DNA from: Cenococcum geophilum
Taxonomy: Eukaryota
Assembly: GCA_050273025.1 (NCBI GenBank)
Contig: CP158635.1
Coordinates: 10,354,001 to 10,418,000, forward strand
DNA: 64,000 nucleotides
Direction: 5' to 3'
Each line of letters opens with the position of its first letter. Within the stretch, counting starts at the first letter, position 1. The notes under the pieces are model-generated. The model ran no database searches and was not told where the DNA came from. It saw only the letters and a list, made by a program, of their open reading frames with translations. Of this stretch, positions 3,431 to 27,920 are shown piece after piece. A program made the translations under genes and the position numbers.

Positions 3431-4349
3431 TAGGAACGGATCTAGAATATTATAGCTAGTGACCCTCTTTATACAATAGAGTGAAATTTAATAAAGTAAG
3501 ACGGGTATGGGTAAAATGTAGTTTTATATAGATTTAGGTTTTAATTTTGGCGCCTATATGTTATAACGTGTTATATAGGGATTGGTTCAGCCAATAGGTA
3601 TATAAGGAAGATTAACCGTTAGGGTATAGCTATATATCAGCTAGTAGAACGTCTAGGGACTGTATCGTCTTATTACAGCCTATATTTCATTTCACTCCAT
3701 TTTATCTCGTTTTAGCTAAGTTTTAGACTTTAATATACCTTTAAGCTTCATTAGTTCTAATATATATGTACTCTCTTTATACCAATCCAAGACATCCTAC
3801 CTAGATCCTATATACAGTTACTTACAAAATCGGCTTCCGGTTTTTATACTTTAAAAATTATCAGCGTATAGTCCTTGCTATAGCTCTTAGTATACATTTT
3901 ACCCAATAAGTATGTAGGGAGAAGTATACCGAAACATTGTTTCTCTATATTTATCTTCATTTCATTTATCGCCGAGATTGTATTTAGATGTTCCTCGCTA
4001 AATAGCCTACCTCTCTAAGTATAAACTCGCTGTCAACTTTAGGCAAGCCGCCTTAACTAGCCTAGGGGTAAAGCTTAAACGTCTAGCACTATTTATATTA
4101 TATAGCTGTCGCTGCCACTAGACGTTATCGTCAAACGCTCCCTCTAGAACGCCCTTAAGAACTTCCTCTAGAACTCCCTACAGAACTTCCTATAGGCTCC
4201 CTTCTTAACGCCCTATCCGGCCCTCTTTAGACGCCAACTTTAGACCTTTATATTGACGGCCCTGACGCTAATAACTGTTTCCATTCCTTGTATAAAGCGT
4301 CTAAAACAATCTCCGTGGAATCTCGAAGACCTATATACTAAAGGATAAT

Positions 4350-5243
4350 ATTATACAGTATCTGCCTGGCTTAGGAGGAAGGGACGTGGTTAGTATAGGC
4401 ATTATAGCGCTCGTTATACGTCTTAATGCTGTTATAAAGTTCTCTAAGCCTTCGGAATGGCGCTTAATGGATAGAGAAAAGCTTGTTTACCAACGTCTTG
4501 GCTATAATTACTGCGGGATCCTTCGATACTTTAGGCCATGTGGGGCTATAGAAAATGCTATAATCCTATAGTTTGCGAGTTATAGATCTATATGCTAATA
4601 CTTTATAAGGTAGAAGAAACTAGTTCCGCTTTCCCTTAAACTTCAATAGGCCGAATAAATTACTAGAGCTGTTTGTTTTATCTATTTGAGAAATATACTA
4701 TATGGCGATATCTCCTGCAATAATATATTCCTTAATAAAGGGCTTAATGCGAAGCTTAGTGATTTTGCTAGGTTAGCTATTAATGACCTTCTACCCCTTA
4801 TTTGTTATAAGACTAGTTATAAGCTTCCTAATTAAGATATTTTAAAGAAAACTAAGCTCTTTGCTCTTAGTTTAACTATTTATAAGATAATAACTGGTTC
4901 TAAACTATATAATAGGCTCTTAGATAAACAAATTTGTATAGCATTTATTGAGGGACGCTTTCTAGATCTGGAGCCTCTACTTGCGTTTAGGGACGTTATT
5001 ACAAATTGTTGGAAATAGAGTTACGGAAGTGTAGACGAAGTCCTTTAAGACGTGAGATCCGAAGGTATAGCTTAATTCTTTGACTTTACTCCTAGCACTG
5101 ACCACTTTTTAGTTACTAAAAATTCGAATCTATGCTCGACTTTACTGCACTATTTATATTTATTTCCTATTATACTTACTACTTTGTTTCTATTTCTACT
5201 TCTACTCTAGGCAAAGAGTTGTAAATTACTTAATATATATTAG
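4350..5243 (+). pseudogene. Protein kinase-like gene (RIPed) with hydrophobic C-terminal exon
   Basis: Reads YGDISCNNIFLNKGLNAKLSDFA (de-RIP HGDISCNN...LGDFAG: catalytic loop and DFG-like motif) at ~4700-4770, then KLFALSLTIYKIITG and ITNCW. Intron at ~5064-5111. ORF 4386..4571 is part of this gene. The 5' end may extend to ~3990. Confidence 0.8.
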
Positions 5244-5284
5244 TAAAGACTACTGACTTACTCCTTAGTGCTTATATTGTTTTC

Positions 5285-5497
5285 TTAAAGTGGACATTAA
5301 GGGCAGTCGCCAGGTTTTTTAGATGATCCTATTACTAATACTTCGCCATTAAGACCTTTGGCCGGCGAAGCGTTAGAGCAATAATACCTATTCTTTTTCG
5401 CTTTCTCGCACTTATCCCATCTACGGTCGGACACAATGTAATAAGAGTTAGCTCCGCATTTGCTGTAGTAGAACAATTAATCATAGTAGTAATATAT
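5285..5497 (-). pseudogene. Small Cys-rich protein (~70 aa), RIPed
   Basis: Translates (I/M)YYYYD*LFYYSKCGANSYYIVSDRRWDKCEKAKKNRYYCSNASPAKGLNGEVLVIGSSKKPGDCP*CPL*, ending in a CxxC. Confidence 0.55.
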
Positions 5498-5939
5498 TTA
5501 GCGGAACGATGGTAACTAAAGTTTTAGACTAGTGTAGTAACTAGTAAATTGCTATTGGAATAAGAACCTCGCGGTCAGTGCTAGATATACCTTATTTGCA
5601 TAAAGTGTTTAACCTAACTTATTACTGCCTAAGTGATAGTTCTAAGCTGGCAATGTAGATGCAACGTAGATGTAGTATAGGTGCAGTAAGGTTTAAGTAT
5701 AGAAACCTACGTATAATGGGAAATTCCGGTTAGCTGGAAATCTCCTTTTAGTTTATCCAACTTCACCTATAATTGCACTTTGTGGGCGTGTTATACATTA
5801 ACATTTTATAGTAGCTCGAACTAATATAGGGAAGTCGCTAAGGCTGCATGGGGGCTATAAAGAGGAGTCGCGTAAAATGTGTGCCAAGAGCTGCAGTAAG
5901 GACCGTGCCTTCTTTTATATTATATAAGGGAAAATAGGA

Positions 5940-6040
5940 TAGTTATGGAGTGAGATAGAATGGAGCGAGATGGAATAGAGTAAGATGTGGAATTGGAATA
6001 AAGTGGAATAAAATGTAGTAGAATGTAGTGGAATGGCATA
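5940..6040. repeat. Degenerate (GGAAT/GAGAT)n pentamer tract
   Basis: atggagtgagatagaatggagcgagatggaatag...tggaattggaataaagtggaataaaatg. Confidence 0.6.
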
Positions 6041-6580
6041 AGCTAAGGCGAAGTGAGCACTAATTGGCATCTATTCTTCCTCCGCCTCTAGTGCTTCTTC
6101 GTATCTTTTAAAACCGTCCACCTAGCTCCTACGTATTAATCAAAACAATTATATCATTTTTAACTGTGCCCTTAGCAATTAGAACTCATAACGCCTTACC
6201 CAACTCGCTGGTATATGTTTACTTCGGTTAAAAGAGTAATCAGCTCGTTTGGTGTCAACCTTTTACGACATTATAGAATTTAAGCCGCGATCCGCGGTGC
6301 AAGCCACCCATTAAAGTCCTTCTGCATGCTACCCTCTATCAATCTAAGACGTATAGCTGGCTCCTACGCATTAACTAAGACCGGGACTGAGATCCCGGCA
6401 TGCAGTCCTATACCTTAAGCCTATTACTTAGCTTGTGGTTTCTATATTGGTAGGATACTAGTATAATCTAGCGCTCTAATGCTTGCAATTATGATTGCGT
6501 ATCTAAACCGCTAAACGATGTCTTAATAAGCAAGCCCCTCCCCACAGCTTTACTGAGTGGAGCTTTTCACTATTAAAACA

Positions 6581-9281
6581 ATGCCACTACGTATCTAGCC
6601 TCTGCTAGGATAGATAAGGGAAAGGCTATATAGCTAGAGAGGGGTGTAGTGGATATTTGCGGCATAGTGGTAATAGATTAAAAGGTATAATATTAGGTAG
6701 ATTTTCCTCTAGAGACTAGTACTATTAACCTCCTCTAGCTACTTCTCTAATTTTATACTTTAAATCAGCTCTACCCTTTAGGCAATATATAGACTATATT
6801 AAAGACCCTAAACACTCCTCTAGGTAGCCCTACTCTATTACTAGCTTAGCAGCCCCTTATTATCTAGTATACTCTACAATTCCTAAAGCTGCTAAAGGTA
6901 GCTATAATAATAAATACGTTGTCTACCTCTACCTCTACTTTAGAAGGCCTAGCTGTCAAGCCACTAGCCCCAGAAGACCCTAAAACTAAAGCAATATTAT
7001 AAGCCTCTAGGTTAGAGTATAAGACGGTAAATAAAGTGTATATCTTTACAGTCGTGCATATATAGTCCTACTAACACTATTTCTTTATAGTTGAGATAAG
7101 AAAGCTTATTAGTATAAGATTGCTAAGCCAGTGGCCTTAATAGGAGAGGTTAATAAACTGGACTAATACGTGTTTATTAATTGTATTTGAATTAGTAGGC
7201 ATAATACTCTTTATAAGTGTCTTTAATTACTAAAGATAAATTACAGATAAGAAAACTAAAGACTCTATATTTTATGTTAATATTAAGTCTAAAGGGTTGT
7301 AAGACGTTCTAAGGAAGGTCCTTAAAGATGTCTATAGGATCTGCCTAAGAGAGGACAAGCCTTTAGTGCGGAAAATCTCCGCTATTAAAACTTACCAGCT
7401 TATACCGCGTATAGGTTAAATAGAACCTCCTATATAATTTTCTTCCGGAACTAGAATTATATTAAAGTAGTATAAACGTTAACTCTAAGAACGAAGTGTA
7501 TTTAAAACATTTGGACCTCTTAATTAGCTTTATTAAAACCACCTACGCGTCTATAACTAAATGCCTTAAACCCCTTTTTAAGAACTATAAAATCACGTAT
7601 AATCTACTTTAGGCTCTCTTTAAGCTGAACTTAGAGGTCTATACTACCTATTTTAGTACCAGCAAACCGAGATACGTTAAGTTTAATTATAGTAAGGAAA
7701 AAATAAGATTAAGCGAAACTAAGTACTTCCATCTGGACTGTTGCTACTTTAATTTTAATGGGAAAGTATTTAGGGAAGCCGCCCTTAGGCTTGCTATTAA
7801 GAAGTTTCATAGAACGAAATGGATAGACCTGCTTTAGGCATTTCCTCTAGAGTATTACTAGAAATCGAGCGAGATTAGAGCACGGTTAATTAGATATAGT
7901 TGAATTTTTAATAACTTAAGAGGCGTCTACTACCGCTAGTACTAAGGGACTGCCTTCTATAAGGATAAAGACGGCAATAAGATCAAAGTCTTTGTTAAGA
8001 GCCAAATCATAGTTAATACGGCGTATTTTCGGCAAATTAACCCTAATTACGCTAGACTATAAATTAACAAGTCGCTAGGAACACTGGACTTATTAGCTAT
8101 CTTTAATTTTATAAAGGGCTTAATTAAAAGGAAAAACTAAATTAAGAGGACAGATATAGATCTAACTAAAATAAAGGATTAAGATTTCCTAATTAGCAGC
8201 CTAACTATGCTAGGTTTTAGTCTAGGTAATAAGTACTAGTGTGCGTTATCTTTACTTATATATAAGCGGCATTTGCTAACGCATTATAGTTAAGTTCGCA
8301 GTTGCTAATATTAGTAACATTATATGAAACCCTTCTTCCTTTAATAACCTTAGGATTCCTACTTAGTAGAAGGAGGTTATTTAAGCTCTTAGTAAAACCT
8401 ACTTATTTTAGGACTCTTACCCTACCTTAAATGACTTTGTATTGGGCAAAGGACGCAGACTTATTACCCTCCTATAGTATATTACCATGCCTCTATTATA
8501 AAATAATAGTTACACTATTACCTTACTAAGATAACTAAATTAGTGGGCCGCCTGGTGTTAGTAAGACCTTAACAGTAGAGGCGATGTTAGAATACCTTAT
8601 AAGACCACTTTACGTTATACGTCTCTATTTCCTTATAATTACAGTTCTTTCTAACCGAGTAGATCTTTGCTGGAGAATTAGGCACGACCGCGGATGCACT
8701 TAAGGAGAAGCTTTCTCTTATCTTTAAGATAGTAACCCACTGGAAAGCCACTCTACTTCTTAATAAGGCGGACGTGTTCGTAGAATAGCGTGCTACTAAT
8801 AATGTTTATTATAATGCCCTTATTTATATATTCTTGCACAAGCTTAAATACTATAAAGGAATCTTATTTCTTACAACTAACTAGGTAAAGACGATTAATA
8901 AAGCCATTGCAAGCAGAATACACCTCGCGCTTTAGTACGGCCCATTAAATCGGAATGCTTAAGAGGCAGTTTAAAGGAGTTTCCTTAATAAGGCGAGCAC
9001 GATAAAAGGAGCCGCAGATTTCACAGAAAAGGACCTCAATATTTTGGTAGGGAAGGATCTTAATGGCCGAGAGGTAAGAGCTTTTACGCCTATGGTAAAG
9101 CCAAGCTAATTAACTTTCTAATCTAGATTAAAAATGCTGTTTTTATGGCTTAAGCATTAGCTAGCTATAAAGAGACGTAAGTGTCCTTATTATATTTAGA
9201 ATTCGCTATTAGTGCAAATGTAGAATTTCAGTATAATTTTATAGGAGAAGGTAAGTTTAACAATATACAGTCCTACGCTTA
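6581..9281 (+). pseudogene. Fungal AAA+ ATPase gene (multi-intron), RIPed
   Basis: Walker A GPPGV(S/G)KTLT(V/A)EA at ~8545-8585. Walker B LLL(N/D)(K/E)ADVFVE at ~8753-8785. Also FLHKLKYYKGILFLTTN*V, IASRIHLAL and LNGRE/IKNAV, plus GT-AG introns. Start approximate. Confidence 0.9.
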
Positions 9282-10129: not shown

Positions 10130-10900
10130 GTGTCTGGAGGAACGTTAGTTCTAAAAGGAGTTAAATACCGCCCGAGGAAAAATGCCTGGAGGAACGTCAG
10201 TTCCGAAAGGAGTTAAATGCCTAGAGGAACGTTAGTGCCTAGAGGAACGTTAGTTCTGAAAGGAGTTGAATACCGCCCGAGAAAAAATTGGGGTGTGCTC
10301 GTCTTGCCCTCTTATTGGCCAAATCTTTCATCCTCTTATTGGTTAAATCTTTGAGCCCTCTTATTAGTCAAATTTTCTTACCCTCTTATCTGTTAAATCT
10401 TTAAGCCCTCCTATTAGTCAAATCTTTAAGCCCTCTTATCTGTTAAATCTTTAAGCCCTCTTATTTATCAAATCTTTAAGCCCTCTTATCTGTCAAATCT
10501 TTAAGCCCTCTTATTTATCAAATATTTGAGCCCCCCCCACTTATTAGATCTTTAAGCCCTCTCGTTTATCAAATCTTTAAGCCCTCTTATTCGTTAGATC
10601 TTTAAGCCCTCTTATTTATTAAATCTTTAAGCCCTCTTATTAGTTAGCTTTTTACCTCTTTAGGCTAATTAATATATTCTCTTCGGAATTTCTTCGCGCC
10701 GCCAGTATAGTCGGTTAGGAGGTATAGGTAGGAGAGGGGATCCTTAAGTGTATTCGCTTATTAAGATCGGCTTATTATTCGCTTAGGTGTAAACGTCCTA
10801 TCTCCTTTGCAAAGTAGATTATAGCTTTAACCGCGCTAATGTTTAGGAAACGCCATAAAAACAAGGGTGTGGCCAGTGCGGGTCAGCCGCCCTCCCTACT
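10130..10900 (+). repeat. Module 1 arm A: short terminal repeats, 25-bp tandem array, ~250-bp conserved block ending in core site
   Basis: Near-identical to 16520-17162 and 22835-23414. Contains tandem aaatctttaagccctcttat(n5) at ~10320-10645 and ends aagggtgtggccagtgcgggtcagccgccctccctact. Confidence 0.9.
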
Positions 10901-11635
10901 TATAGTGGCGACACCTAGCACTAAATCACTTTAATTATCGTTACATATAAGCTGTAACTATACTTATATAGCTAACTACCTCCATATTCGCACTAGCACT
11001 ATAGTTATAAATTTTAGACCTGTTTTAGACGCTGCTACTATCCCTAAACGTAATATACTATCTACCTATCTAACCTTTACTCTTAATTTGCTAAACCAGC
11101 GATATCTAACATCGGCTTCTATAAAATGTATATCGACTTTACCGTTACATCTTAAGTAGTGTTAATTAACCGTATAAGAATACGTTAAAGAGGTTATATA
11201 AGGCCGAACGGCACTATAAAGTAGTATAAATGCACTTGGGCAGTGTTGAGGGCAGAGTAAGTAGTATAGTTAGGCATATGTGTGTGGGAGTAAGAGTAAT
11301 TGCTAAGGTTTTATCCACAACGTAGGGCGTAATAAGAGGATACAATAATGTATATATAAAAGCCTTTGTAGTGTATATGTAGCGCCAAGCATATTTCTTA
11401 GTAGAGAGGGGCTTATAATTTATCTGCGCCCTACTTTATTTAGCTTTAATACTTTCCTAGCTTATATTAGCGTTATGCGCATTATAGAGAATTAAGTGCT
11501 ATAGCGTTAAGGGCGTAGTAAGCGTCGAGTTTTAGAGGTATTGCTGTCTTAGCTAGGCCTTACCCCGCTAATAAATCCCGCACAGTCCGTAATTGTAAAC
11601 TTACTATAGTGTGATTTAATACTAATTGCTAGAAA

Positions 11636-14600
11636 ATGGCGTTTGTATAGGAACAAGCTCCTTCTTAAATTTATAATAACTTTATAGACGTATATATAGA
11701 GCTTAGCTATCTAATACTAATTCTCTAACAGCAATCCTAAAATTTAGGAGGTATATAACGCTATATAAAAAGAAGAATAACTACTAACAGTAGTCTGCTT
11801 ATTGGTGTAGATAGTAAGTTAACCTATTTAAAATAGACGAGATGCAATAACTGCTAATCGTAGTCTGCTTATTAGTGTAGAGAGTAAGTTAACCTATTTA
11901 AGATGGATGAGATGCGATAACTGCTGACCATAGTCTGCTTATTGGTGTAAAGAGTAAGTTGACCTATTTAAGATAGATAAGATGCGATAACTGCTAACTA
12001 TAGTCTGCTTGTTAATGTAGGATATAAGTTAACCTATTTAAGGTGGATAAGATGCGATAACTGCTAACTATAGCCTACTTATTGGTATAGAGAGTAAGTT
12101 AACCTATTTAAGATGGACGAGATATAATAACTGCTAACCGTAATCTACTTATTAGTATAGAGAGTAAGTTAACCTATTTAAGATAGATAAGATGCAATAA
12201 CTGCTAACCATAGTCTGCTTGTTGGTGTAGTTAATAAGTTAGCCTATTTAAGATGGATGAGATATAATAACTACTAACTATGGTCTACTTATTGGTGTAG
12301 AGAGTAAGTTAACCTATTTAAGATGGATGAGATGCGATAACTACTAACTGTGGTCTACTTGTTGGTGTAGTGGGTAAGTTAACCTATTTAAGATAGACAA
12401 GATGTAATAACTGTTGACCGTGGTCTACTTATTAGTATAGTTAGTAAGTTAACCTATTTAAGATAGATAAGATACAATAACTGCTAACTATGGCCCGCTT
12501 ATTGGTGTAGGATATAAGTTAACCTATTTAAGATGGATAAGATACAATAACTACTAACCGTGGTCTGCTTATTGGTATAGAGAGTAAGTTAACCTATTTA
12601 AGATGGATAAGATATAATAACTGCTAACCGTGGCCTACTTATTAGTATAGTTAGTAAGTTAACCTATTTAAAATGGATGAGATACAATAACTGCTAACTA
12701 TAGTCTGCTTATTAGTGTAAAGAGTAAGTTAACCTATTTAAGATAGATAAGATGCAATAACTGCTAACTATAGTCTACTTATTGGTGTAGAGAGTAAGTT
12801 AACCTATTTAAGATAGACGAGATACAATAACTGCTAACCGTGGTCTGCTTATTGGTGTAGTTAGTAAGTTAACCTATTTAAGATAGATAAGATGTAATAA
12901 CTGCTAACCGTGGTCTGCTTATTGGTGTAGACAGTAAGTTAACCTATTTAAGATAGATAAGATGCGATAACTACTAACCGTGGCCTGCTTATTGGTATAG
13001 AGAGTAAGTTAACCTATTTAAAATGGATAAGATACAATAACTGCTAACTATAACCTGCTTATTGGTATAGAGAGTAAGTTAACCTATTTAAGATAGACGA
13101 GATATAATAACTGCTGACCGTAACCTGCTTATTGGTGTAGGTGGTAAGTTAACCTATTTAAAATGGATAAGATGCAATAACTACTAACTATGGTCTGCTT
13201 ATTGGTGTAGTAGGTAAGTTGACCTATTTAAGATGGATAAGATACAATAACTACTGACCGTGGTCTGCTTATTAGTGTAGAGAGTAAGTTAGCCTATTTA
13301 AGATAGATGAGATGCAATAACTACTAACCGTGGTCTACTTATTAGTGTAGTGGGTAAGTTAACCTATTTAAGATAGACGAGATATAATAACTGCTAACCG
13401 TGGCCTGCTTATTAGTATAGAGAGTAAGTTAACCTATTTAAGATGGATAAGATGCAATAACTGCTAACTATGGTCTGCTTATTGGTGTAGTAGGTAAGTT
13501 GACCTATTTAAGATAGATGAGATGCGATAACTGCTGACTGTGGTTTACTTATTAGTGTAGAGAGTAAGTTAACCTATTTAAGATAGATAAGATATAATAA
13601 CTGCTAACTATAGTCTACTTATTAGTGTAGAGAGTAAGTACTTTCTTTTTAGGTCTTTAATTTCTTTACATATCATGTTGATTTAGGGCATGACTTTAGA
13701 TATCTTAGACGCCTTTTATTAACAATCAGTTTGCTATAAGGTTTTTTAGCAACTAGCCCTAAAGCACATCTTCTAAAAATCCCGTCTCTGCTTAATTGTG
13801 TTTATACTGCGTAGATCTTATATCTTTAGACCACCCTAAAAGTGCCTTTAAATTACGCACTCTAAGAAATAATTGTCTTCTCTATAACCTGCTCCTTAAT
13901 ATAGTCCGGTGTAATTATAGTGGAGATTATTAACAGGTTCCTATAATTAGAGATGATTTAGCCCTTATAGTTACTACAGATAGTCTATATATTATTCGCC
14001 TTTATGCCAATCTAGGTTTGTCTTTACCCTCTTTTAATATATTTAACTATGTCGCTTACTACTTTATATTGGTAAAAGAACCATTAATAGATGGTAGTTA
14101 CGGTATTGAAATTGGACCTCCTATTTTATAAACAATCAATCTCTTCCAAATTTGCAGTGCTTTATACTTCCAGTTACTATATAAATGGCTTTAGGAGTGT
14201 GACCAAAGTCATATATATAACCGGTAAACACAATACTAGCTAACAAGAGTCATTTTTATTAGAGGTCTAGATCCTAACAGATTGATACTTCAGGAGTAAG
14301 CGAGTGGAGAGGACTATTTTATGCTCTCGCACTACTAGGGTAATCTAACGGATAAGGAGAAGAAGCGGTTCTACACCACTCTAAAAAACTACCGTAATTA
14401 AATAAAGGAGGGATTCAGCTATAATGATTTACTAAAGACATTTTAAGATACGGTTTAAGTGACTCGAGAACTTAGTAAAGAGTACCTTTAGATTAATTCT
14501 CTTTGTATAATTTAAGGAAATAAGGAGGATTGGAAAAGAGAAGCTGGGCGCATAGAATAGGTCTTTACCTCTACCTACTATACCATTACCGCGAGTTCGG

Positions 14601-15624
14601 CGCCTAATTGGAGAGATGGCTTCCTTAAGCGGAACTTAAGTCCTTAGTATTTTTAGATCTAAAGTAGCTCCTATAGATAGGTTTATATCTATAATAACAC
14701 ACACGACTATAGTAAAGATATAGATGAAAGCCCCCTTAATAAGAGAGCTTGGGTACTATAAGAGCGAGTGCTGTCCTATAAAACTATCCATTTTTCTGTA
14801 AAATAGACGTATTGGGAGTGTGCGGAAGATATACTTTACAAAAACTTTATAAGGCTATAATGGTAAAGCTAAAGTTAAAGGTCATAGTAGAGTAATATAC
14901 TCTAATATTATATTCTAGCCCACCGGGAAGGGAACATTTTATTCTTAATTTTAATTTTCCTAAACGGCTTACGGCGTTAGGGTACGATTATACGGTTAAC
15001 TTTGTCCAAATTCTTTTTAAGAAGTATTTACAATGCGGTCTTACCAATAAATCCAATAGGGATACTGCGATCTTTAGCTTGGTCAAGCGCATAGAAAGTG
15101 CCTTAGACACTAAAGGAAAATACGGAGTATTTTACTGTTTTTTCTCTAAACTCCTTCTATAGAAATGGTTTAATAGGGAGAATATAGATCCGATTTTTTA
15201 CAATAGTCGAAGGGTGCCATCCTAGTCTTAGATGGCATATAATGGAGGAATTGATTTTATATCGGATTTGACACTTATAGTTCCGCGCTCTAAAGATCTC
15301 GGATTTGACACCAATCGAAAGGCGTTAGTCGTAAAAATTAGATAGTTTAAACATTGTCAAATAGAACAAGAAGAGAAAGAGCATGCTATTTTTGCTAATT
15401 TAGAAAGAGTGGGGTCTTTATAGTTTAATATGGCAACCAAAATTGAGTTTAGGCATTGTGTTGTCGTTAGGATGCGTAATAATCAGGAGGAAAACCCCCA
15501 GAAGACTTACTATATACTAGTTGTCCGAGAAAAACCACTAGAGAAGGAGTATAAAAGACTTAGAGTTGGGAAAGTTAAAGCACGCTATATATTAAAGGAG
15601 AGCGATACTAAAAAGCTTATGTAA
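11636..15624 (+). pseudogene. HET-domain (PF06985-type) gene with 5' tandem intron/microexon array, RIPed
   Basis: YFMLSHY*G, DLLKTF*D, EYL*INSLCII*GNKEDWKREAGRI, PLNKRAWVL*ERVLS at ~14315-14790. Upstream LCLYC...CLL(Y/C)NLLL exon. ORF 15430..15624 is the C-terminus. Start codon tentative. Confidence 0.85.
11751..13686 (+). repeat. Tandem array, period 70 bp: 67-nt GT-AG intron + 3-nt variable microexon (27 microexons)
   Basis: Unit is GTAAGTtaacctatttaagatggatgagatgcgataaCTGCTGACcgtggtctgcttgttggtgTAG + NNN. The triplets start at 11811, 11881 ... 13631. Confidence 0.85.
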
Positions 15625-16073
15625 ATTTGTTATTAGTTTATAAGTTAGTAGTTTTCTTACGAGATATAATATAAGAGTATAAATATTAACGCTCCTAGGT
15701 TGTTAGCTTTAGTAACCCTTAATTAAAACAATATAGAGCTCCTCCTTTACTAATATAAAATTGCTAGTTCTTATACTCCTTAAGTATAGGCAATAGGTAA
15801 GCTTTAATACCTAGTAAGTATTACTAGTTCTTTTTAACAGCGAATAGGGCTCGTATATACCGTTTAATAAAAAGTTACTTATTAAAAGGTTAAGTATATA
15901 GTTGGATATATAAACGGAATATCGTATTTAAGGATAGCGGCAGTATTTAAATAGGTCCTTAAATTTATAGAATAAGACTAGTGTAAATGCGGCGCTAGTT
16001 GGCTTTATAAGCATAGTTATAATTTATATATAACGGTAATTAAAGTAATCTAGAACTAGATGTCGCTGCTATA

Positions 16074-16520
16074 AGTAGGGAGGGCGGCTAACCTGTACCA
16101 GCTATACCCTTATTAAGAGTCTACTTCTTAGGATTAAAGAATAGAGGAAATAGGGGAACTATAGTTAGTGTTGGAATAAATGGTCTTAAGTGTGGTGTTA
16201 TAGCGGTAATACACTACCTCCGCTGCTCGGCGTTTGACTTGGCGCGGTTACTAAGTTAACTAAACTATACCAAAACCCCTAACCTATATCCTCGTCAACG
16301 GAGACATATTAAAGGTATAGGCGCTCCCATAGGCGGGTCTTCTATAGGGATTAGCACTAGCCCTATAACTAGGGCTTTTTAACCCTAGGGCTCTTAATTA
16401 CACCTACACTTTTAAATTTGGCGCCATTGACGTATTTTAAACTAACCCTTTTATTTATAGTCGTCGGAGTAGAGTTTCTTTAGGCTTCGCGAAGCTACCT
16501 TTAGGGGCGATCTTTTATAC
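16074..16520 (+). repeat. Module 1 arm B: inverted core site + ~410-bp conserved block ending in palindrome and ggggcgatctcttgtac
   Basis: Near-identical to 22444-22838 and 28357-28797. Confidence 0.9.
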
Positions 16521-17162
16521 CTAGAGGAACGTAGTTCTAAAAGGTATTTAGTGCCTAGAGGAACGTCAGTTCTAAAAGGGTTAAATACCGCCCGAGGAAA
16601 AATTGGGTTAGGCTCATCTTGCCCTCTTATTAGTCAAATCTTTTCGCCCTTATTGGCTAAATTTTCTCGCCGTCTTATCGGTTAAATCTTCTCGCCCTTT
16701 TATTTATTAAATTTTCTTACCCTCTTATTTGTTAAATCTTCTTCGCTCTTATTTATTAAATCTTCTTACGCTCTTATTTATCGAACCTTCTTACGCTCTT
16801 ATTTATCAAATCTTCTCGCCCTCTTATTCGTCAAATCTTCTCGCCCTCTTATCCGCCAAATCTTCTCGCCCTCTTATTTATTAAATTTTCTCGCCCCTTT
16901 ACTAGTTAGCTTTTTACCTCTTTAGGCTAATTAATATATTCTCTTTAGAATTTCTTCACACCGCTAGTATAGTCGGTTAGGAGGTATAGGTAGGAGAGGG
17001 GATTCTTAAGTATATTCGCTTATTAAGATCGGCTTATTATTTACTTAGGTGTAAATATCTTATCTCCTTTACAAAGTAGATTATAGCTTTAACCGCGCTA
17101 ATATTTAGGAAACGCTATAAAAACAAGGGTATAGCCTTAGCGGGTTAGCCGCCCTCCCTACT
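16520..17162 (+). repeat. Module 2 arm A
   Basis: Homologous to 10130-10900; 25-bp tandem variant aaatcttctcgccctcttat(n5); ends in core site 17125-17162. Confidence 0.9.
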
Positions 17163-17594: not shown

Positions 17595-20500
17595 TTAACC
17601 CTTCTTTAAATTGGAGAAATAATATACCCCCTAATAAGTGTCCTAATATAATTATTGCATTCTAAATAGCTATATAAGTTGCTTAATAGTTAGGAGGAAG
17701 CTAAAGAATATTCCCCCCCTTTTTCTCTACCTAATTGTTTAACACAAATAGAGTATATAACTGCTCTAAAGAATCTAGCAATGCCTTAAGAGAGGATATA
17801 TTTACTACTCCTCTATCCGTTTTAAGGTATTAACCTAAAGTGGAGAATAAAAGGTTATTAATAACTATACCAATCTTAAGCATCTACAGCGCCACTCCTA
17901 TAACGGCGTCCCAGAGCCTAACTATCTCGTCGCCTAAGCTTAACGCCACTAGCTTACCGTCTAGCAAGAAGGCCACTAACGTAACCGAATTTAAATAGCC
18001 CTTAAATATCTATAGTGTTGCTCCTATAACGGCGTCCTAAAGCCTAACTGTCTTATTATATAAGCTTAACGCTACTAGCTTACCGTTTAGTAAGAAGGCC
18101 ACTAATATAACCTAATCTAAATAGCCCTTAAACGTCTATAGCGCCGCTTCTATAATAGCGTCCTAGAGCCTAACTATCTTATTATGCGAGCTTGACGCTA
18201 CTAGCTTACCATCTAGTAAAAAGGCCACTAACATAACCCAATCTAAATAGCCCTTAAACGTCTATAGCGCCGCTCCTATAACGGCGTCCTAAAGCCTAAC
18301 TATCTCATTACCCAAGCTTAACGCCACTAGCTTACTATCCGGCGAAAAGGCCACTAACGTGACCAAATCTAAATAGCCCTTAAATGTCTATAGCGCCGCT
18401 CTTATAATAGCGTCCTAGAGCCTAACTGTCTTATTATACAAGCTTAATGCTACTAGCTTACCGTCTAGCGAGAAGGCCACTAACATAACCCAATTTAAAT
18501 AGCCCTTAAACGTCTATAGCGCCGCTCCTATAACGGCGTCCTAGAGCCTAACTGTCTTATTATACAAGCTTAACGCTACTAGCTTGCCGTCTAGCAAAAA
18601 GGCCACTAACGTAACTAAATCTAAATGGCCCTTAAACGTCTATAGCGCCGCTCCTATAACGGCGTCCTAAAGCCTAACTATCTTGTTATATAAGCTTAAT
18701 GCCACCAGCTTACCGTCTAGCAAAAAGGCCACTAACGTAACTAAATCTAAATAGCCCTTAAATATCTGCAGCGCCGCTCCTATAATAGCGTCCTAGAGCC
18801 TAACTATCTTATTATACGAGCTTAACGCCACTAGCTTGCCGTTTAGCAAAAAGGCCACTAACGTAACTAAATTTAAATGGCCCTTAAACGTCTATAGCGC
18901 CGCTCCTATAACAGCGTCCTAGAGCCTAACTATCTTATTATACAAGCTTAACGCCACCAGCTTGCCATCTGGCAAAAAGGCTACTAATGTAACTAAATCT
19001 AAATAGCCCTTAAACGTCTGCAGCGCCGCTCCTATAACGGCGTCTTAGAGCCTAACTGTCTTATTATATAAGCTTAACGCCACTAGCTTGCCGTTTAGCG
19101 AGAAGGCCACTAATATAACCTAATCTAAATGGCCCTTAAACGTCTGCAGCGCCGCTCCCGTAATGGCGTCCTAGAGCCTAACTGTCTTATTATACAAGCT
19201 TAACGCCACTAGCTTGCCGTCCGGCGAGAAGGCCACTAACGTAACCCAATTTAAATAGCCCTTAAATGTCTGTAGCGCTGCTCCCGTAACGGCGTCTTAG
19301 AGCCTAACTATCTTATTGCCCAAGCTTAACGCTACCAGCTTACTATTTAGCGAGAAGGCCACTAACGTAACCTAATCTAAATAGCCCTCAAGTGTCTGCA
19401 GCGCCGCGCTTTAATTTACTTACACTTTTGGCTTTATTTGGATCCAAGTAGGGATATACTTCTTAAATCGTCTTTAAACAATACTCTTCTCTAGGGCGAA
19501 GATAAGGGCTAAGCAATATAGCTAGAGGGGTGCCTATTTAATCACTAATCAATTATATAGAATAAATCGCTTCGTATTATAAACAAACGCGTATAGGTTA
19601 GGACTTTTATTAGCCTAGGTATAAATTAGTTAGGATTACCTAGTATACTCTAATAAAGACTTATTAGAATTTAAGCCTCCAAGAATAATATTATAAGAAT
19701 CCCTTTTAAAGTCTTCCCTATCTAGCTAAGGGCCTTAAGCTAGTGAAGTAAATGCTCCTATAGAAACCAATAAACTTAGTCGTTATTATAGAGTTAAGCA
19801 CTACCCCTTTAAAGATGCTGGACCTAGTATAGATATATATATTAAACTTCCGGAGGTATATACTGCTCTAATCGACTACTATTAACCCCTTAAGTAGATA
19901 AGCCTGGAGCGTAAACGCTATAGATATCTCTTCCTAGTTTGCTAGATATAAGCCGTATATAGTATTAGGCTAAGGCTTTATACTATTGTCTCTTATTTAC
20001 CTAAAGGGCTTAATTATAGCATCTCTGCTTATCTAGGAGGAAATCTTAAAACGAGGGATGTAATAGGCGAATAGGAGCTCCCTAGTCCTTTAGTATGTTA
20101 AGTACTAAATGTAAATACTATAATCTAGAATTAATTGACTCCAGGCGAATATTAAGCAGTTTAGTAAGAGCGGTAGCAAAAAGCGGTTCTAATAGGATGG
20201 AAAGAGACCCGATTACCTATCTAAATATCTTAGCTAGCTTATCCTTATTCCGTTGGCCTATAACATTCTTAAATAAGTGCTGTAAGATTTAAGTGTATAT
20301 CTCGTTAAGCTCCTATATTGGCAATGTGTATAGAATATCGTGCTTCTAGTCGTGATAACGGTCTAACCCATTACTAGGAAGGAAGAGGTGGAGAAGATCT
20401 TACGGTAACTATTGGTCGTCGCCCTTTATAAAGCGATATACTGTTACGGCATAGATAAACAAGCTTTTAGCTCTCTGGATTAGAAGATTAATCTTCTTAT

Positions 20501-21471
20501 TACTAGGCCAATTAGTAGCGATATTTTTAAAGTCATCCCTTATCTCCCGGAATTTCACCTTTAAGAAGACTGAAATATCCTAGTTGATAATAGCCTGGGG
20601 TATATTATAGAGGACCAAATTATAATATATAATCCTTGGTATAGCCTAGAAGCTAAGCCGAAGTGGTGTATCTAGTCTGCTAGTAATAAAGATATAAAGC
20701 CGAGTAGTATTATAACCGTTTAGCTCTATTAAAAGTTAAAGGATAGCTCTAATATTATTATCCCCCTTATACTCATCTAACGCATTAACTATAATAATAA
20801 ACGGTAACTGAGGCGGATTGGCCTTAAGCTTTAATATTAGCTAGAGGATAAGCTAAGTCCACTAGTCGCGGAGACCTTAATAGGCAATATCGCGGCATTT
20901 AGCAATAACTTTGCAGATATGGCCTTTGAGAGCCTCTAACTAATATGCTAGCTAGGAGGCAATGCTAGGGAAGAACTTTACAGCATAGCTAACATCTCCA
21001 CCACCTTTTAAGAAGAAGAAGCTTACTCCTAGTCGATTTTCCTCATAGTATTTGCGTGCGATTGTATAGGCGATAGTGGACTTTCCTATACCTGCTAAGC
21101 CGTTCAGCCAGAAGATATACCTTTCGTCTTATATATCTGCCTATGACGTTATCTATTATAGAACGCCGGTGCGCGTGTTAGGGAGGTATAGAGGGTTATA
21201 TTACTTATCGTAGGAGTTAAAGGGCGCTTACTTAGCAGAAGGCAATAGTAAAAAAAGGTCCTCTAAGGAGAGAATAAAGAGTTAATAGCTGTGTTGAGCT
21301 GTCTATATAGGAATATATGCTCTACAATAATAGGTCGTCGTAGATAGTTATAGTAGTATATGATGGAAACTCACCATCTCTGTAATTGATCCCCACAAAT
21401 ACATTTGCTCTATCTATAGCCAATATCCCGCTAATATGCTGGGATATATAATAGTTATTAGTTTAGCTTAT
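17595..21471 (-). pseudogene. NACHT-WD40 NLR-like gene (NWD/HET-E family architecture) with short N-terminal amyloid-like motif, RIPed
   Basis: P-loop IFWLNGLAG(I/T)GKSTIA at ~21070-21118. Walker B IIIVNALDEY at ~20770-20800. Also IFITSRL, LFI(Y)A and LHLFLP/HDFL motifs, then 12 WD40 repeats. The N-terminus is only ~35 aa before LPSA*APFNSY. Confidence 0.92.
17884..19406 (-). repeat. 12 highly similar 126-bp WD40 repeats
   Basis: De-RIP unit GAALQTFEGHSDxVxSVAFSPDGKLVASSSxDKTVRLWDAVT; starts spaced 126 bp apart. Confidence 0.92.
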
Positions 21472-21844
21472 TTCTAGAATTTATACTAGAGAACCCACAG
21501 CAATTGCCGCCAGCGATATAGTAGTTAGAAGACTTTCTAAATCTTATACAAGCCTTACGGTATAGGGGCTTAGGCTCTATATTAGGATCTTAGAGAGAAT
21601 AGCGATATATATCTGTAAGAAGTTATAGGTAAAACGCGAACGGAGGGGTGTTAAAGCTAAGCGCCGCTAAGAATATAGTATTAGCTACACTGTGAATATA
21701 ATCTTAAGCGCCCCTCTGTAAGGATTTACGCATTTGTCCACACAATTAATACCTATACTTATTATTAAAATTGTTTATTATTTATAATGGCTTATATCTC
21801 TACTAACTCTTTTATAGGAGATTACTAACTCTTTATATAGGAGA

Positions 21845-22060
21845 TTAATCGCTCTTACCTTTAAAGAACTTATTAATATCTATATTGTTTACTATTCTAA
21901 CTATCCCCCTACTACCTTGTCCAGCCGCCACTTACTTTATATCTTGCTTAATTCCGCCTTAATCTTCTATATTAAAAAATCCTACTAGTAGGTTATCTTT
22001 ATCTGCTGTTATATTCTCAATCCTCTACCTAGTCCGGTCGTAGTATATCTTTACCACTAT
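21845..22060 (-). pseudogene. Short ORF resembling a two-repeat HET-s-related amyloid prion-forming domain
   Basis: Translates (I/M)VVKIYYDRTR*RIENITADKDNLLVGFFNIED*GGIKQDIK*VAAGQGSRGIVRIVNNIDINKFFKGKSD*: two pseudo-repeats plus an aromatic C-terminal tail, like HELLF/HRAM-type PFDs. Confidence 0.65.
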
Positions 22061-22838: not shown

Positions 22839-23414
22839 GCGCAAGAAAACTTTAGTAGCCACTCGTCTTGCCCTTTTATTAGCCAAATCTTTCACCCTCT
22901 TATTAGTTAAATCTTTAAGCCCTCTTATCAGTTAAATTTTCTTACCCTCTTATCTATTAAATCTTCAAGCCCTCCTATTAGTCAAATCTTTAAGCCCTCT
23001 TATTTATTAAATCTTTAAGCCCTCTTATTTATTAAATATTTAAGCCCCCCCTACTTATTAGATCTTTAAGCCCTCTCATTTATTAAATCTTTAAGCCCTC
23101 TTATTTATCAGATCTTTAAGCCCTCTTATTTATTAAATCTTTAAGCCCTCTTATTAGTTAGCTTTTTACCTCTTTAGGCTAATTAACATATTCTCTTCGG
23201 AATTTCTTTACGCCGCTAGTATAGTCGGTTAGGAGGTATAGGTAGGAGAGAGGATCCTTAAGTATATTTACTTATTAAGATTGGCTTATTATTCGCTTAG
23301 GTATAAACGTCCTATCTTATTTATAAAGTAGATTATAGCTTTAACCGCGCTAATGTTTAGGAAACGCCACAAAAACAAGGGTATAGCTAGTGCGGGCCGG
23401 CCGCCCTCCCTACT
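22835..23414 (+). repeat. Module 3 arm A
   Basis: Homologous to 10271-10900; core site 23377-23414. Confidence 0.9.
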
Positions 23415-23719: not shown

Positions 23720-26700
23720 TTATCTTCGAAGTTAGAATATTATCAGGCTCTTAACCTTATCTAAAAGTTCTAGTTCACTAGTAAACCAGTATAGTCTAGC
23801 TTTACCTATTACCTAAAAACCCCCTATAACTAATTATAGGATAACATAGCTGTCGCATCCGAAGACCTTATAGAGTCTGTCTCCTTTTTAACTTTAAGGG
23901 TGCACCCATCCAAGTTCTCCAGTCTAAACGGTCGCGATACGCATACTACTTAATATCGTTATAACCAGAAAGCGCAAATAATTGTCTTACCCTATATTCC
24001 GATCTGTTTTCATTAGCTAAGAAGTCTAGATACTATCCTAAAAATCCATTATCTCCCCAAAGGCAATAAATGACCGATTTACATCAATCCATTCTAACAG
24101 CACCTTAAGTACATTCAGTTTCACAGGCCTAAGAAAGAACTTCTCAAGTTCGGTCTTGTCATTGAAGCTTTAAAGCCCTATAAGATCTGGCGGAAGCTCT
24201 ACGGTTGTTACCAATAGCCTTTAAGTTTTAAGTAGAGTGTTAAATATATAGGTCAAGCGGTTAAAATCGAACGGCACTAAATATGCTCCTTTTCCCGTAG
24301 TTACAACATGCGTCATAACATCGTTCCCGTTAGCAGAAAATGCACTACCTATACTATTAATAGTTCCGAGAATAGCGCTACGGACGGTAAGCGTATTTTT
24401 AAAGAAGCTCGGCTTATCCGTTTACTTAAGAAGGAACCTTAATAAACCCCATTAAATAGGCGCCTAAATCTACTTAAACTCTTACTCTACTAAGGCATTA
24501 TTTAGATCCCTCTAGTCAACCACCTATAAAGGCAGAGAGTTATATAGCCCTTAGCGTAAAGTCCAAAGGTATATTAAGTCGAGTAGGAAACCTTTCTCAA
24601 TTAAAGCTTTTAAGAAATCTATATAGGTTTCCTCAACTAATTAGCTATAGTTTGGTTTAGGGATAAATACGTCACTATTATATATAAGTCCCAGAAGCCC
24701 ATATATCTTATCTTTTAGGTCCATTAACAACGCATAGCAACTGCGGTATAATGCCTCTAGTAATTCAACAGGCTTTATAGCAAGTCTATTAATTCGAAAC
24801 TAAAGTAAGTTCTAAAACCTCGCTTTTAACTCATCACTATTAGTCCTGTTAATACCTACCGTAAAAATAGGGCGCAAAAAATGTTCAAGAGTCTCCTATA
24901 AAAGCTTATAATAACCACAGAATATAGTAATCCTTAATACTGCGGCAAGCTCTTAGATAATCCATACTCGTGTCTAGTACGGTTTTAAGAGTAACTAGAG
25001 GAAAGCACACTAAGCCAAACCCGACTGGACTTAGTAAGCCATAGCAGTATACTTAGCAGACAGAGTTTTAATATCCTCTTTTATTATATCTTATACATCG
25101 CCTAACCAAACAGCCACTTAGTTTGCTTTTTAGAATATTGCGCCCATTCTTCTAACCTAATAACTTCTTTCTTTGTCGTCCTCCTAATTAATATAAAGAG
25201 CATCCACCTAGACACGCTCCACTCTTTCTACTCTTAATCGCCTTAGAGCTAAATAAAGGTTCGCAGTCACAGGGAATCTAAGGTCATTTACAGTGAGGCT
25301 GACTTTATTAGTCAGTTCGCCCTAGTAATATAATAGGGCCGCAAACGGCGGAGCTTTAAATAGAGATATATGGTCAAGCAAACATAATAAGGGCGATATA
25401 TTCTTATCTAACGGGTGTATAGTTAGAAGCCGGATCTATTTAGCTACTTAGTTAAGGTTCTGTCCCTATAGTTGGATAGATAGATATTAGAATTCTTCCC
25501 ACTTAGAGGACGATATAGGTTAGTAGCTGGGTGTTTAGTTCTAGGCTAGATCTATTAAAGAGCCTTAGTTAGCCAATTATCCTCTTTTACCATTACGGTT
25601 TACTTACTCACTATATCCATTAAGTAGCCTTAGTTAGCTAGTCATCCTCTTCTACCATTACGGTTTACTTACAAACTATATCCATTAAAGAGCCTTAGTT
25701 AGCTAGTTATCCTCTTCTACTATTACGGTTTGCTTACAAACTATATCTATTAAAGAGCCTTAGTTAGCCAGTTATCCTCTTCTACTATTACGGTTTACTT
25801 ACTTCCTATATCTATTAAAGAGCCTTAATTAGCCAGTTATCCTCTTCTACTATTACGGTTTACTTACAAACTATATCCATTAAGGAGCCTTAGTTAGCCA
25901 ATCATCCTCTTCTACTATTATAGTTTACTTATAGGCTATATCTATTAAGGAGCCTTAGTTAGCCAGTTATCCTCTTCTACTATTACAGTTCACTTATAAG
26001 CTATATCTATTAAGGAGCCTTAGTTAGCTAGTTATCCTCTTCTACTATTATAGTTTACTTACTTCCTATATCCATTAAGGAGCCTTAGTTAGCTAGTTAT
26101 CCTCTTCTACTATTACGGTTTACTTATAAACTATATCTATTAAGGAACCTTAGTTAGCTAGTTATCCTCTTCTACTATTATAGTTTACTTACTTCCTATA
26201 TCTATTAAGGAGCCTTAGTTAGCCAGTTATCCTCTTCTACTATTATAGTTTACTTATAGGCTATATCCATTAAGGAGCCTTAGTTAGCCAGTTATTATCT
26301 TTTACTATTATAGTTTACTTACAGGCTATATCTATAAAGGAGCCTTAGTTAGCCAGTTATCCTCTTCTACTATTACAGCTTACTTACAAGCTATATCCAT
26401 TAAGGAGCCTTAGTTAGCTAGTTATCCTCTTCTACTATTACAGTTTACTTACTTCCTATATCCATTAAAGAGCCTTAATTAGCCAGTCATCCTCTTCTAC
26501 TATTATAGTTCACTTACAAACTATATCCATTAAAGAGCCTTAGTTAGCCAGTTATCCTCTTTTACTATTACGGTTTACTTACAAACTATATCCATTAAGG
26601 AGCCTTAATTAGCCAATCATCCTCTTCTACTATTATGGTTTACTTATAGGCTATATCTATTAAGGAGCCTTAGTTAGCCAGTTATCCTCTTCTACCATTA

Positions 26701-27920
26701 CAATTCACTTATAAGCTATATCTATTAAGGAACCTTAGTTAGCTAGTTACCCTCTTTTACTATTACGGTTTACTTACTTCCTATATCCATTAAGGAGCCT
26801 TAGTTAGCTAGTTATCCACTTCTACTATTATAGTTTACTTATAGGCTATATCCATCAAGGAGCCTTAATTAGCCAGTCATTCTCTTCTACTATTATAGTT
26901 TACTTACATCCTATATCCATTAAGGAGCCTTAGTTAGCCAGTTATCCTCTTCTACCATTATAGTTTACTTACAAGCTATATCCATTAAGGAGCCTTAGTT
27001 AGCTAGTTATCCTCTTCTATTATTACAGTTTACTTACTTCCTATATCCATTAAAGAGCCTTAATTAGCCAGTTATCCTCTTCTACCATTATAGTTTACTT
27101 ATAAGCTATATCCATTAAGAAGCCTTAGTTAGCCAGTTATCCTCTTCTACTATTACGGTTTACTTACAGGCTATATTTATAAAGGAGCCTTAGTTAGCCA
27201 GTTATCCTCTTCTACTATTACAGTTTACTTACAGGCTATATCTATTAAGGAGCCTTAGTTAGCCAGTTATCCTCTTCTACTATTACAGTTTACTTATAGG
27301 CTATATCTATAAAGGAGCCTTAGTTAGCCAGTTATCCTCTTTTACTATTACGGTTTACTTACAGGCTATATCCATAAAGGAGCCTTAGTTAGCCAGTTAT
27401 TCTCTTCTACCATTATAGTTTACTTACAGGCTATATCTATTAAAGAGCCTTAGTTAGCTAGTTATCCTCTTCTATTATTACGGTTTACTTACTTCCTATA
27501 TCCATAAAAGAGCCTTAGTTAGCCAGTTATCCTCTTCTACTATTACAGTTTACTTACAGGCTATATCCATTAAGGAGCCTTAATTAGCCAGTTATCCTCT
27601 TCTACTATCACAGTTTACTTACTTCCTATATCTATTAAGGAGCCTTAGTTAGCCAGTTATCCTCTTCTACTATTACAGTTCACTTACTTCCTATATCCAT
27701 AAAGGAGCCTTAGTTAGCCAGTTATCCCCTTTTACTATTACAGTTTACTTACTTCCTATATCCATCAAGGAGCTTTAGTTAGCCACTTACTGCCTATATT
27801 TATTAAGGAGCCTTAGCAAGTTATCCTCCCCCTACGGTTTATATACCATCTAGATTATAAAATTATCCTTTTAGCTATTTAACAGTACCTCTAAGGTCCT
27901 AGCTTTCTTACCTTTAACTT
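23720..27920 (-). pseudogene. HET-6-like HET-domain gene with 5' tandem intron/microexon array, RIPed
   Basis: IRLLTIHP, FAALLYY*G, VTANLYLALRRLR, VDALYIN*EDDKERSY*VRRMGAIF*KAN*VAVWLG, PY*TRVWII*ELA and DPKDKIYGLLGL motifs at ~24690-25435. Start tentative. Confidence 0.87.
25546..27846 (-). repeat. Tandem array, period 65 bp: 62-nt GT-AG intron + 3-nt variable microexon (34 regular microexons + 1 preceding a shortened intron)
   Basis: Minus-strand unit is GTAAGTgaaccgtaatggtagaagaggatgactgGCTAACtaaggctccttgatggataTAG + NNN. Triplets lie at + positions 25608, 25673 ... 27753, and 27791. Confidence 0.85.

Follow-up and report, generated by a model that had tools for sequence, protein, structure and literature searches.

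The 70-bp array and the gene that carries it

The stretch of DNA analysed here (the window) comprises 64,000 nt of the Cenococcum geophilum contig CP158635.1, and all positions refer to it, on the forward strand unless the minus strand or another contig is named. Our subject is a tandem repeat at 11776–13639 (Tandem Repeats Finder (TRF): period 70, 26.6 copies, 85% matches, 0% indels, score 2376) that precedes the remains of a gene for a HET-domain protein and in which each unit resembles an intron followed by a single codon. HET genes act in incompatibility. The HET domain (PF06985) of this gene, at 14315–14764 (+), was recognized over the whole profile (positions 1–146 of 146) with stops read through (E=2.5e-18; 67.2 bits against a cut-off of 22.5). 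On the + strand from 13600 to 16600 this was the only domain, and neither NACHT nor ANK was found, so the host is not a gene of the NACHT-ankyrin type.

How is this repeat built? First, the sequence TAAGT occurs at 27 sites, in exact 70-nt steps from 11815 to 13635. Second, the units carry the signals of an intron: the donor is GTAAGT in 23 of 26 units and ATAAGT in three, the acceptor is TAG in 24 and TAA in two, and the branch site reads RCTRAC. Third, when the 26 full units are aligned, 28 of the 67 intron columns vary, each by C/T or G/A only, and transversions relative to the majority base are restricted to columns 68–70, the triplet (8, 6 and 2 cells). Transversions thus occupy 16 of 78 triplet cells and none of 1742 intron cells (Fisher p=2.7e-23). 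Because transversions fall on the triplet alone in units of this anatomy, we read the array as coding microexons. It has the make-up of a codon-sized microexon array in both structure and coding: exact 3-nt tandem exons with their own short canonical introns, and triplets that are in frame with the flanking exons and hold most of the variation. We therefore take the 70-bp repeat to be such an array, spliced in phase 0 within the 5′ coding part of the HET-domain gene, and put the probability of this reading at about 0.88.

An original prediction for this DNA had listed 27 triplets, and these are identical to the ones that we extracted independently. Its proposal of codon-sized exons between near-identical introns is borne out by the unit anatomy and the exact 70-nt spacing, and its view that the introns differ by repeat-induced point mutation (RIP) agrees with the finding that all 28 variable columns hold transitions only. 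The triplet might, by its own account, have proved no more variable than the rest of the unit; variability is instead concentrated there. The link that it drew between array and HET gene also stands, in that phase 0 joins exon 1, the array and exon 2. Absent from it was a 28th single-codon exon, GAG at 11749–11751, immediately before the repeat.

The predicted gene model is given in Table 1. It was drawn up by comparison with three metagenome loci (L001, L002 and L004) and with the 700-residue protein P0117, all of which are described below. The first 18 residues of P0117, MAPVEEQAPPWIHNNFED, align with the window reading frame that begins at the ATG at 11637 and is directly followed by GTATAT; in the intact L001, exon 1 is MAFIQEQAPLWIHSNFTD, followed by GTATGT. 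The start of exon 2 at 13700 matches L001 (TTTAG, then ACATCTTGG), L002 (TTTAG, then ACAACTTGG) and the KSWTSF of P0117, while the window copy opens with ATA TCT TAG ACG, which reads I S W* T.

Table 1. Predicted features of the two arrays and HET genes in the window, and arrays at related metagenome loci (positions within the named contig for the latter)
Feature	Position	Strand	Basis or remark
Exon 1, ATG plus 17 codons (MAFV*EQAPS*IYNNFID), two RIP-type stops (TAG, TAA)	11637..11690	+	Aligned with L001, L002, both L004 copies and P0117
Intron 1, 58 nt; donor GTATAT (GTATGT in L001), branch CTCTAAC, acceptor TTTAG	11691..11748	+	Sequence and cross-locus comparison
First single-codon exon, GAG (E)	11749..11751	+	TAG/GAG/GTATAT kept in L001, L002, L004 and inverted L004; P0117 residue 19 is E
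Intron 2, 59 nt; 3′ half already array-type (ACTACTAAC...GTGTAG)	11752..11810	+	Sequence
27 single-codon exons and 26 introns of 67 nt, 70-bp period	11811..13633	+	TRF, spacing, column analysis
Last intron, 66 nt; donor GTAAGT, branch GTTGAT (GTTGAC in L002), acceptor TTTAG	13634..13699	+	Exon 2 in phase 0 with HET frame
Exon 2, N-terminal Cys-containing region and HET domain (14315–14764)	13700..14823	+	Pfam; homology to P0001, P0002 and P0117 from 13709 on
Diverged exon end and ~56-nt conventional intron	14824..14917	+	RNA-labelled contigs have 38 letters in place of these 94 nt
Last exon, C-terminal part of HET protein	14918..15624	+	Homology; frame 14896–15624
Second, unrelated array: ATG 27849–27847, donor, then single-codon exons	25541..27849	-	TRF period 65, 34.5 copies, score 3244
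Exon after second array, into second RIP-degraded HET domain (25339–24949)	24949..25540	-	Pfam HET E=3.3e-16
Array of L001	3755-5931		100% identity to P0115
Array of L002	2750-4236		75% identity to P0115
Array of L004	2741-4649		56% identity to P0115; inverted second copy at 1-1908

The junction of the array with exon 2 was the point at which the original prediction went astray. It had placed the acceptor at 13686, a model with phase-2 introns and an acidic peptide (QEExEDQDGQ...), and GATTTAG at 13680–13686 does resemble an acceptor. However, exon 1 ends in phase 0 (GAC/GTATAT; GAT/GTATGT in L001), no upstream ATG with a donor supplies the coding length of 2 mod 3 on which phase 2 depends, exon 2 of L001, L002 and P0117 starts at the position of 13700 (xSWT...), and the intact arrays are free of stops in phase 0. 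Phase 0 and an acceptor at 13699 are supported alike by exon 1, by exon 2 and by the arrays of L001, L002 and L004, and we regard the phase-2 model as hardly credible. The peptide of the window microexons in phase 0, E-IRRDRRLRWLDRLRRLTRRV*RWR*RR, is rich in R, L and W. Two further candidates were rejected here: an ATG at 13690 is out of the HET frame as a start, and a 19-nt exon at 11733–11751 breaks the phase, so that intron 1 (11691–11748) with the GAG microexon common to all loci was preferred.

The window copy is a RIP-degraded pseudogene, because its body frames hold 28 stops in 396 codons (13700–14887, all TAA or TAG) and 6 in 243 (14896–15624), 34 over both; stops are found in exon 1, in two microexons and in the HET body. 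Several of the differences of exon 1 from P0117 fit C-to-T or G-to-A changes in the window, where TTT (F) and TCT (S) stand in place of P, TAA in place of W and TAT (Y) in place of H. The window as a whole is AT-rich (26–48% GC per kb), with a TpA/ApT index of 1.6 and a (CpA+TpG)/(ApC+GpT) index of 0.59; for the HET body the two indices are 1.4 and 0.69 in the window versus 0.86 and 1.16 in L002. After the RIP-type changes had been reversed, the mutated cells of the array fell on CpA (130), CpG (122), CpC (74) and CpT (7). With so strong a CpG share, methylation-linked deamination and RIP cannot be separated as the source of these mutations.

Arrays at related loci and an expressed paralogue

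Does the array accompany this gene elsewhere? Metagenome contigs scanned with the homologue P0115 gave 23 loci, and the arrays were compared at the three closest with upstream sequence. In all three a 70-bp array lies directly before the HET reading frame, between the same exon 1 and exon 2, and shared by them are a 17- to 18-codon exon 1 that ends at a donor, the GAG microexon and an exon 2 that starts xSWT. Read in phase 0, the array of L001 gives EWDRSEEESFRSFRFERFKREESRRRSSREELN (0 stops in 33 microexons), that of L002 gives EWERERNENFFFEFENFREFWWG (0 in 23) and that of L004 gives EELVSELELEWERFLVGKERAVK*LLGVN (1 in 29), and the inverted copy of L004 gives EELVELELFVEKLLLEKELELEWERFLA (0 in 28). 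Four of the five arrays have their transversions concentrated in the triplet columns; the L002 array also shows them in two intron columns. L002 is un-RIPed (0.84, 0.99) and draws its triplets from few codons: GAG 6, TTC 5, TGG 3, AAT 3, AGA 2 and GGG 1.

Two of these loci have peculiarities of their own. In L001 the array (3727–5925) is RIP-marked (TpA/ApT 1.43; other index 0.76), whereas the HET reading frame at 5990–7900 is not (0.91, 1.13) and the gene is otherwise intact; it seems, from these indices, that the tandem array attracts RIP onto itself while its microexons remain free of stops. In L004 the copies of exon 1 and array stand head to head, at 1–1945 (-) and 2597–4664 (+), with an axis near 2318, an arrangement that amounts to an inverted duplication of the gene's 5′ portion; its left copy continues beyond the end of the contig.

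A looser scan for chains of at least six microexon-like sites picked out six of the 23 loci and, in the window, both strands. In L011, whose HET protein is a more distant relative (35% identity), five single-codon exons (TAC, AAG, TTT, CCA and AAA) lie at 3405–3815 before the homologous exon, and their introns, of about 75 nt, are unique and non-repeated. L012 and L005 were listed alongside it for single-codon exons. Because the unique-intron microexons of L011 occupy the homologous position, the comparison points to an early origin of a few microexons and a later tandem amplification, and L011 may represent the ancestral state.

A search with the HET region returned 110 proteins at E<=0.001 from 514 candidates, across many Pezizomycotina. 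The best homologues are P0001 (68% identity), P0002 (69%) and two Zopfia rhizophila proteins (66% and 60%). P0001 begins MPSINNQFAASFF and aligns with window codons from 13709 (TPFINNQFAIRFF), about 70 nt past the array; with conserved coding sequence so close, no space is left for a promoter between the two. The 90% cluster of P0002 includes P0116 (at NCBI, a partial heterokaryon incompatibility protein of Cenococcum geophilum 1.58) and P0117, which stems from Logan contigs and was found on three of them. The order in P0117 is MAPVEEQAPPWIHNNFED, a stretch of 79 residues, KSWTSFINHQFAAS / KSWTSFINHQFAASFFSNQPW and the HET body. Its 79 residues consist of E (38), F (20), R (18), Q (1), K (1) and N (1), the first being E and the last N, just as GAG comes first and AAT last in L001 and L004.

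Because array-bearing genomic DNA could not give a continuous reading frame, P0117 would represent a spliced message or a processed copy, and its 79 residues may match the triplets of an array one to one. The original prediction had allowed for a transcript that starts after the array; P0117 begins in exon 1 and has these 79 residues at the position of the array. Judged from such comparisons, the family appears to be alive, with at least one intact relative expressed and spliced and the window copy dead.

An alternative would make the array a minisatellite without coding function, part of the promoter or of the 5′ untranslated region, with incidental splice-like motifs; the stretch in P0117 would then come from an ordinary exon. 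The called homologues do begin about 70 nt past the array, and the unit is multi-copy in the genome: in the DNA contigs (X5), the depth is 2355 on a single unit and roughly 36–145 on the gene body. This is contradicted by donor, branch site and acceptor all being canonical, by the placing of the transversions in the 3 nt between acceptor and donor (four of five arrays), and by a conserved exon 1 with ATG and phase-0 donor upstream in five loci. Moreover, the un-RIPed array alphabets (E, F, R, N and W) match the composition of P0117, as do the GAG, TTC, AGA, AAT and TGG of L002, and the 66 nt between array and exon 2 leave no room for a promoter. We consider a minisatellite of this kind very improbable. 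The same DNA contigs, of which 898 were placed, show further unit variants and triplets, and the pile-up on the unit together with these variants implies several arrays and many HET paralogues in the genome.

Splicing of the array in the transcript

The proposed working of the array is as follows. Each unit would be a complete spliceosomal intron (67 nt: GTAAGT, a TACTAAC-type branch site and TAG) plus one codon. Transcription would start upstream of exon 1 (ATG 11637), and phase-0 splicing would join the 18 leader codons, GAG, the 27 single-codon exons and the large exon that encodes the Cys-containing region and the HET domain. The predicted product has a low-complexity stretch of about 28 residues between leader and body, written in a small codon alphabet that would differ between paralogues. 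Since a unit is exactly one intron and one codon, its gain or loss alters the peptide by whole residues and the skipping of any microexon preserves the frame, while any retained intron introduces a stop within three codons (GTA AGT TAA). We infer that every unit is spliced one to one and that arrays grow by unequal crossing-over. The latter had been raised in the original prediction. Among the paralogues, codon order differs and the loci have from 20 or more up to 33 units (79 residues in the expressed paralogue), a pattern consistent with whole intron-plus-codon units being gained and lost. Alternative splicing may diversify the peptide. The N-terminal stretch is most likely a fast-evolving, possibly sticky, disordered module that would tune the activity or specificity of the HET protein.

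The RNA data bear on the paralogues rather than on the window copy. They were compared with 13560–16400, a stretch that leaves out the array itself, and come from runs whose RNA labels are partly guessed. Two contigs from RNA-labelled runs, X22 (1896 nt, depth 184) and X23 (1847 nt, depth 265), match 14233–14823 and 14918–15676 at about 80% identity. They differ from the window in the direction of RIP, with A in the window against G in the RNA at 129 and 124 positions and T against C at 75 and 82. The replacement of 94 window bases (14824–14917) by 38 letters fits the excision of a conventional ~56-nt intron; in this same region the reading frames of P0118 and P0119 break, and P0002 and P0117 are continuous. 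Before 14233 the loose end of both contigs translates as KHQKCRKRIS, which matches P0002 and P0117, and both stop at nucleotide 289 of the P0117 coding sequence, which by arithmetic falls in codon 97, that of the last microexon residue. An assembly break in a low-complexity or variable region would account for such an ending, which proves nothing more. The joining of microexons in mRNA is thus indicated indirectly, and for a paralogue, by P0117, with its 79 residues, and by RNA-labelled contigs of the same gene; no read-level junctions were found. From X21, of a second label, 32 raw RNA reads out of 9.29 million records were placed at 13655–14414, on the strand expected of + strand RNA. No RNA dataset was listed for 11400–15700.

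Several results speak against a coding array. None of these 32 reads reaches 95% likeness or lies on the last unit, and no transcript of the window copy was found among the RNA data examined. The Logan label of P0117, like those of the RNA runs, is partly a guess. Formally, the stretch of P0117 could still be an ordinary exon or belong to a processed copy. A homologue search with its residues 1–135 returned 3856 candidates, none at E<=0.001, and its first 145 residues gave no hits against 1.84 billion representatives, for which low-complexity filtering is the likely cause. Finally, the annotated or called starts of P0001, P0115, P0006 and P0116 lie downstream of the array, which could point to translation beginning there. 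We read these starts as an artefact of gene calling, because the ATG of P0115 is ACG in the window and in L002 and T in P0117. P0001 and P0115 were given a start at an internal ATG (L001 6001, corresponding to window 13709), and P0116 is N-terminally partial; gene callers appear to miss exon 1 and the array.

The same models without the stretch (P0116, P0001 and P0115) could be taken to mean that the array is transcribed but mostly removed, as one large intron or stepwise (recursively), with sporadic inclusion and a functional protein that lacks the stretch. Recursive splice sites look like AG/NNN/GTAAGT junctions, and the junctions of the array resemble them; the RNA-labelled contigs, too, stop at the edge of the microexon region. 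On the other hand, contig breaks in low-complexity sequence are expected from assembly alone, P0117 has 79 in-frame residues there on three contigs, and the intact arrays are stop-free in phase 0 with small, paralogue-specific alphabets, which argues for selection on coding. We therefore think it unlikely that the array is removed in this way.

A similar design is known from the nank (NACHT-ankyrin) family of Tuber melanosporum, the one described case that we came across, in which, according to passages of later papers that refer to the original description, there are tens of tandem 3-nt exons per gene (Iotti 2012, via PMC9815663, PMC4986451, PMC3689799, PMC13449251). As far as those passages describe nank, the two systems have in common exact 3-nt tandem exons, tens of them per gene, in an expanded family of the self/non-self type in a root-symbiotic ascomycete, and skipping preserves the frame by construction in both. 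They differ in family, the array here belonging to a HET-domain (PF06985) gene and there to NACHT-ANK genes, and in position: here the array is N-terminal, between an 18-codon leader and the body, whereas the diversity of the truffle genes is assigned by one citing paper to their C-terminal recognition domain. The host here appears to be a Dothideomycete, as the closest named protein is that of Cenococcum geophilum, and the truffle is a Pezizomycete. Unlike the truffle genes, the window copy is RIP-dead, and the likeness is one of architecture, apart from intron sequence or unit length. With its full-length HET match, the protein resembles the HET-domain proteins of filamentous ascomycetes (PF06985; het-6, tol and pin-c types). 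In the full-text literature, supplements excluded, we found neither a HET gene with a microexon-encoded N-terminal stretch nor microexon arrays in Cenococcum.

Short symmetric exons are also known from the micro-exon genes (MEGs) of Schistosoma, with exons of 6–36 nt, introns that are not tandem copies, and secreted proteins of an animal parasite as products. The array shares with them many very short symmetric exons whose frame-preserving skipping varies the protein; it differs in that the exons have 3 nt and the introns are tandem near-copies.

WD40-repeat NOD-like receptors (NLRs) of the Podospora HNWD type provide a third comparison. Passages of two papers describe them as having highly similar repeats that diversify by reshuffling (PMC9815663, PMC13449251), and in what is related there they resemble the present case in having a tandem repeat in a non-self-type gene, with unit number and order changeable by unequal exchange. 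In contrast, their repeat is one of 42 residues within one exon, as those accounts have it, whereas here it is an intron plus one codon, so that nearly all of the repeat DNA is removed from the mRNA. An HNWD-like NLR adjoins the HET gene in the window. The HET, NACHT and WD40 families are described as expanded in C. geophilum in parts of PMC5023957 and PMC9293092, and a passage of a 2026 paper regards the truffle mechanism and one of a brown alga as lineage-specific strategies (PMC13449251).

Arrays of one-codon exons have until now been regarded as a peculiarity of the NACHT-ankyrin genes of truffles; here the known design is found in another gene family (HET) and another fungal class. A fungal spliceosome would need to define 3-nt exons dozens of times consecutively. 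The expanded HET families of Cenococcum would hide an unannotated N-terminal module, the NCBI model being partial and the metagenome callers using an internal ATG, and repeats scored as minisatellites or RIPed junk may be coding. Splicing-based diversification of fungal cell-death effectors also becomes directly testable.

The second array and neighbouring features of the window

A second array, on the minus strand, leads into a second HET gene whose domain is of a different subtype (Table 1). It has 34 single-codon exons at an exact spacing of 65 nt, and its 62-nt introns are unrelated in sequence to the 70-bp array. The codons are CCT (11), GAA (10), TTT (6), CTT (5), GAT (1) and TGA (1). 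Transversions occupy 10, 11 and 10 cells in the triplet columns; the 62 intron columns together have 9, and 6 of these lie in one column. An exon start at 25545 was tried and found to be out of frame; the next acceptor (CCTAG), with the start at 25540, is in phase 0 with the HET frame. CCT, CTT and TTT form a C-to-T series, along which RIP has probably recoded P to L to F.

Within 16 kb the architecture appears two times, independently, and the expressed relative has 79 consecutive residues at the position of the array. We put forward, tentatively and as a speculation that we would not bet on, that intron-plus-codon units are a general evolvable cassette of the HET genes of this fungus. Subfamilies would have independently amplified different introns (70-bp, 65-bp), building paralogue-specific, disordered tails of a few letters (E/F/R, E/P, R/L/W); length, order and skipping would give an N-terminal repertoire that sets the threshold or specificity of cell death, with alphabets biased to RIP-tolerant codons. 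If so, the arrays would be a splicing-based counterpart of WD-repeat shuffling, and RIP on a tandem array would recode residues, usually without stops, as P, L and F in the second array illustrate. In the intact gene of L001 the array is RIP-marked and the body is not.

Other features of the window are degraded as well. Upstream of the first HET gene lie a protein kinase fragment at 4557–4935 (+) (Pkinase E=1.3e-5) and a DUF7025 gene fragment at about 7570–8700 (+) with a GPPGxxKT P-loop motif just downstream, both with RIP-type stops. The kinase fragment was considered as an N-terminal partner of the HET protein and rejected, because the DUF7025 gene intervenes and exon 1 has its own ATG at 11637.

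The NLR, also RIP-degraded, occupies about 17890–21900 (-), convergent with the HET gene, and combines an NPHP3_N/NACHT domain (E=1.2e-21) with highly similar WD40 repeats. L002 has WD-type repeats of 126 bp in the same relative place, and because of this match it seems that the HET and NLR genes were duplicated together, as one block. Finally, an element with a 25-bp minisatellite is present in three copies, 78–91% alike, at 10232–10900, 16548–17162 and 22870–23414. Two of them bracket the HET gene unit, and the element may be a mobile element or the edge of a duplicated segment.

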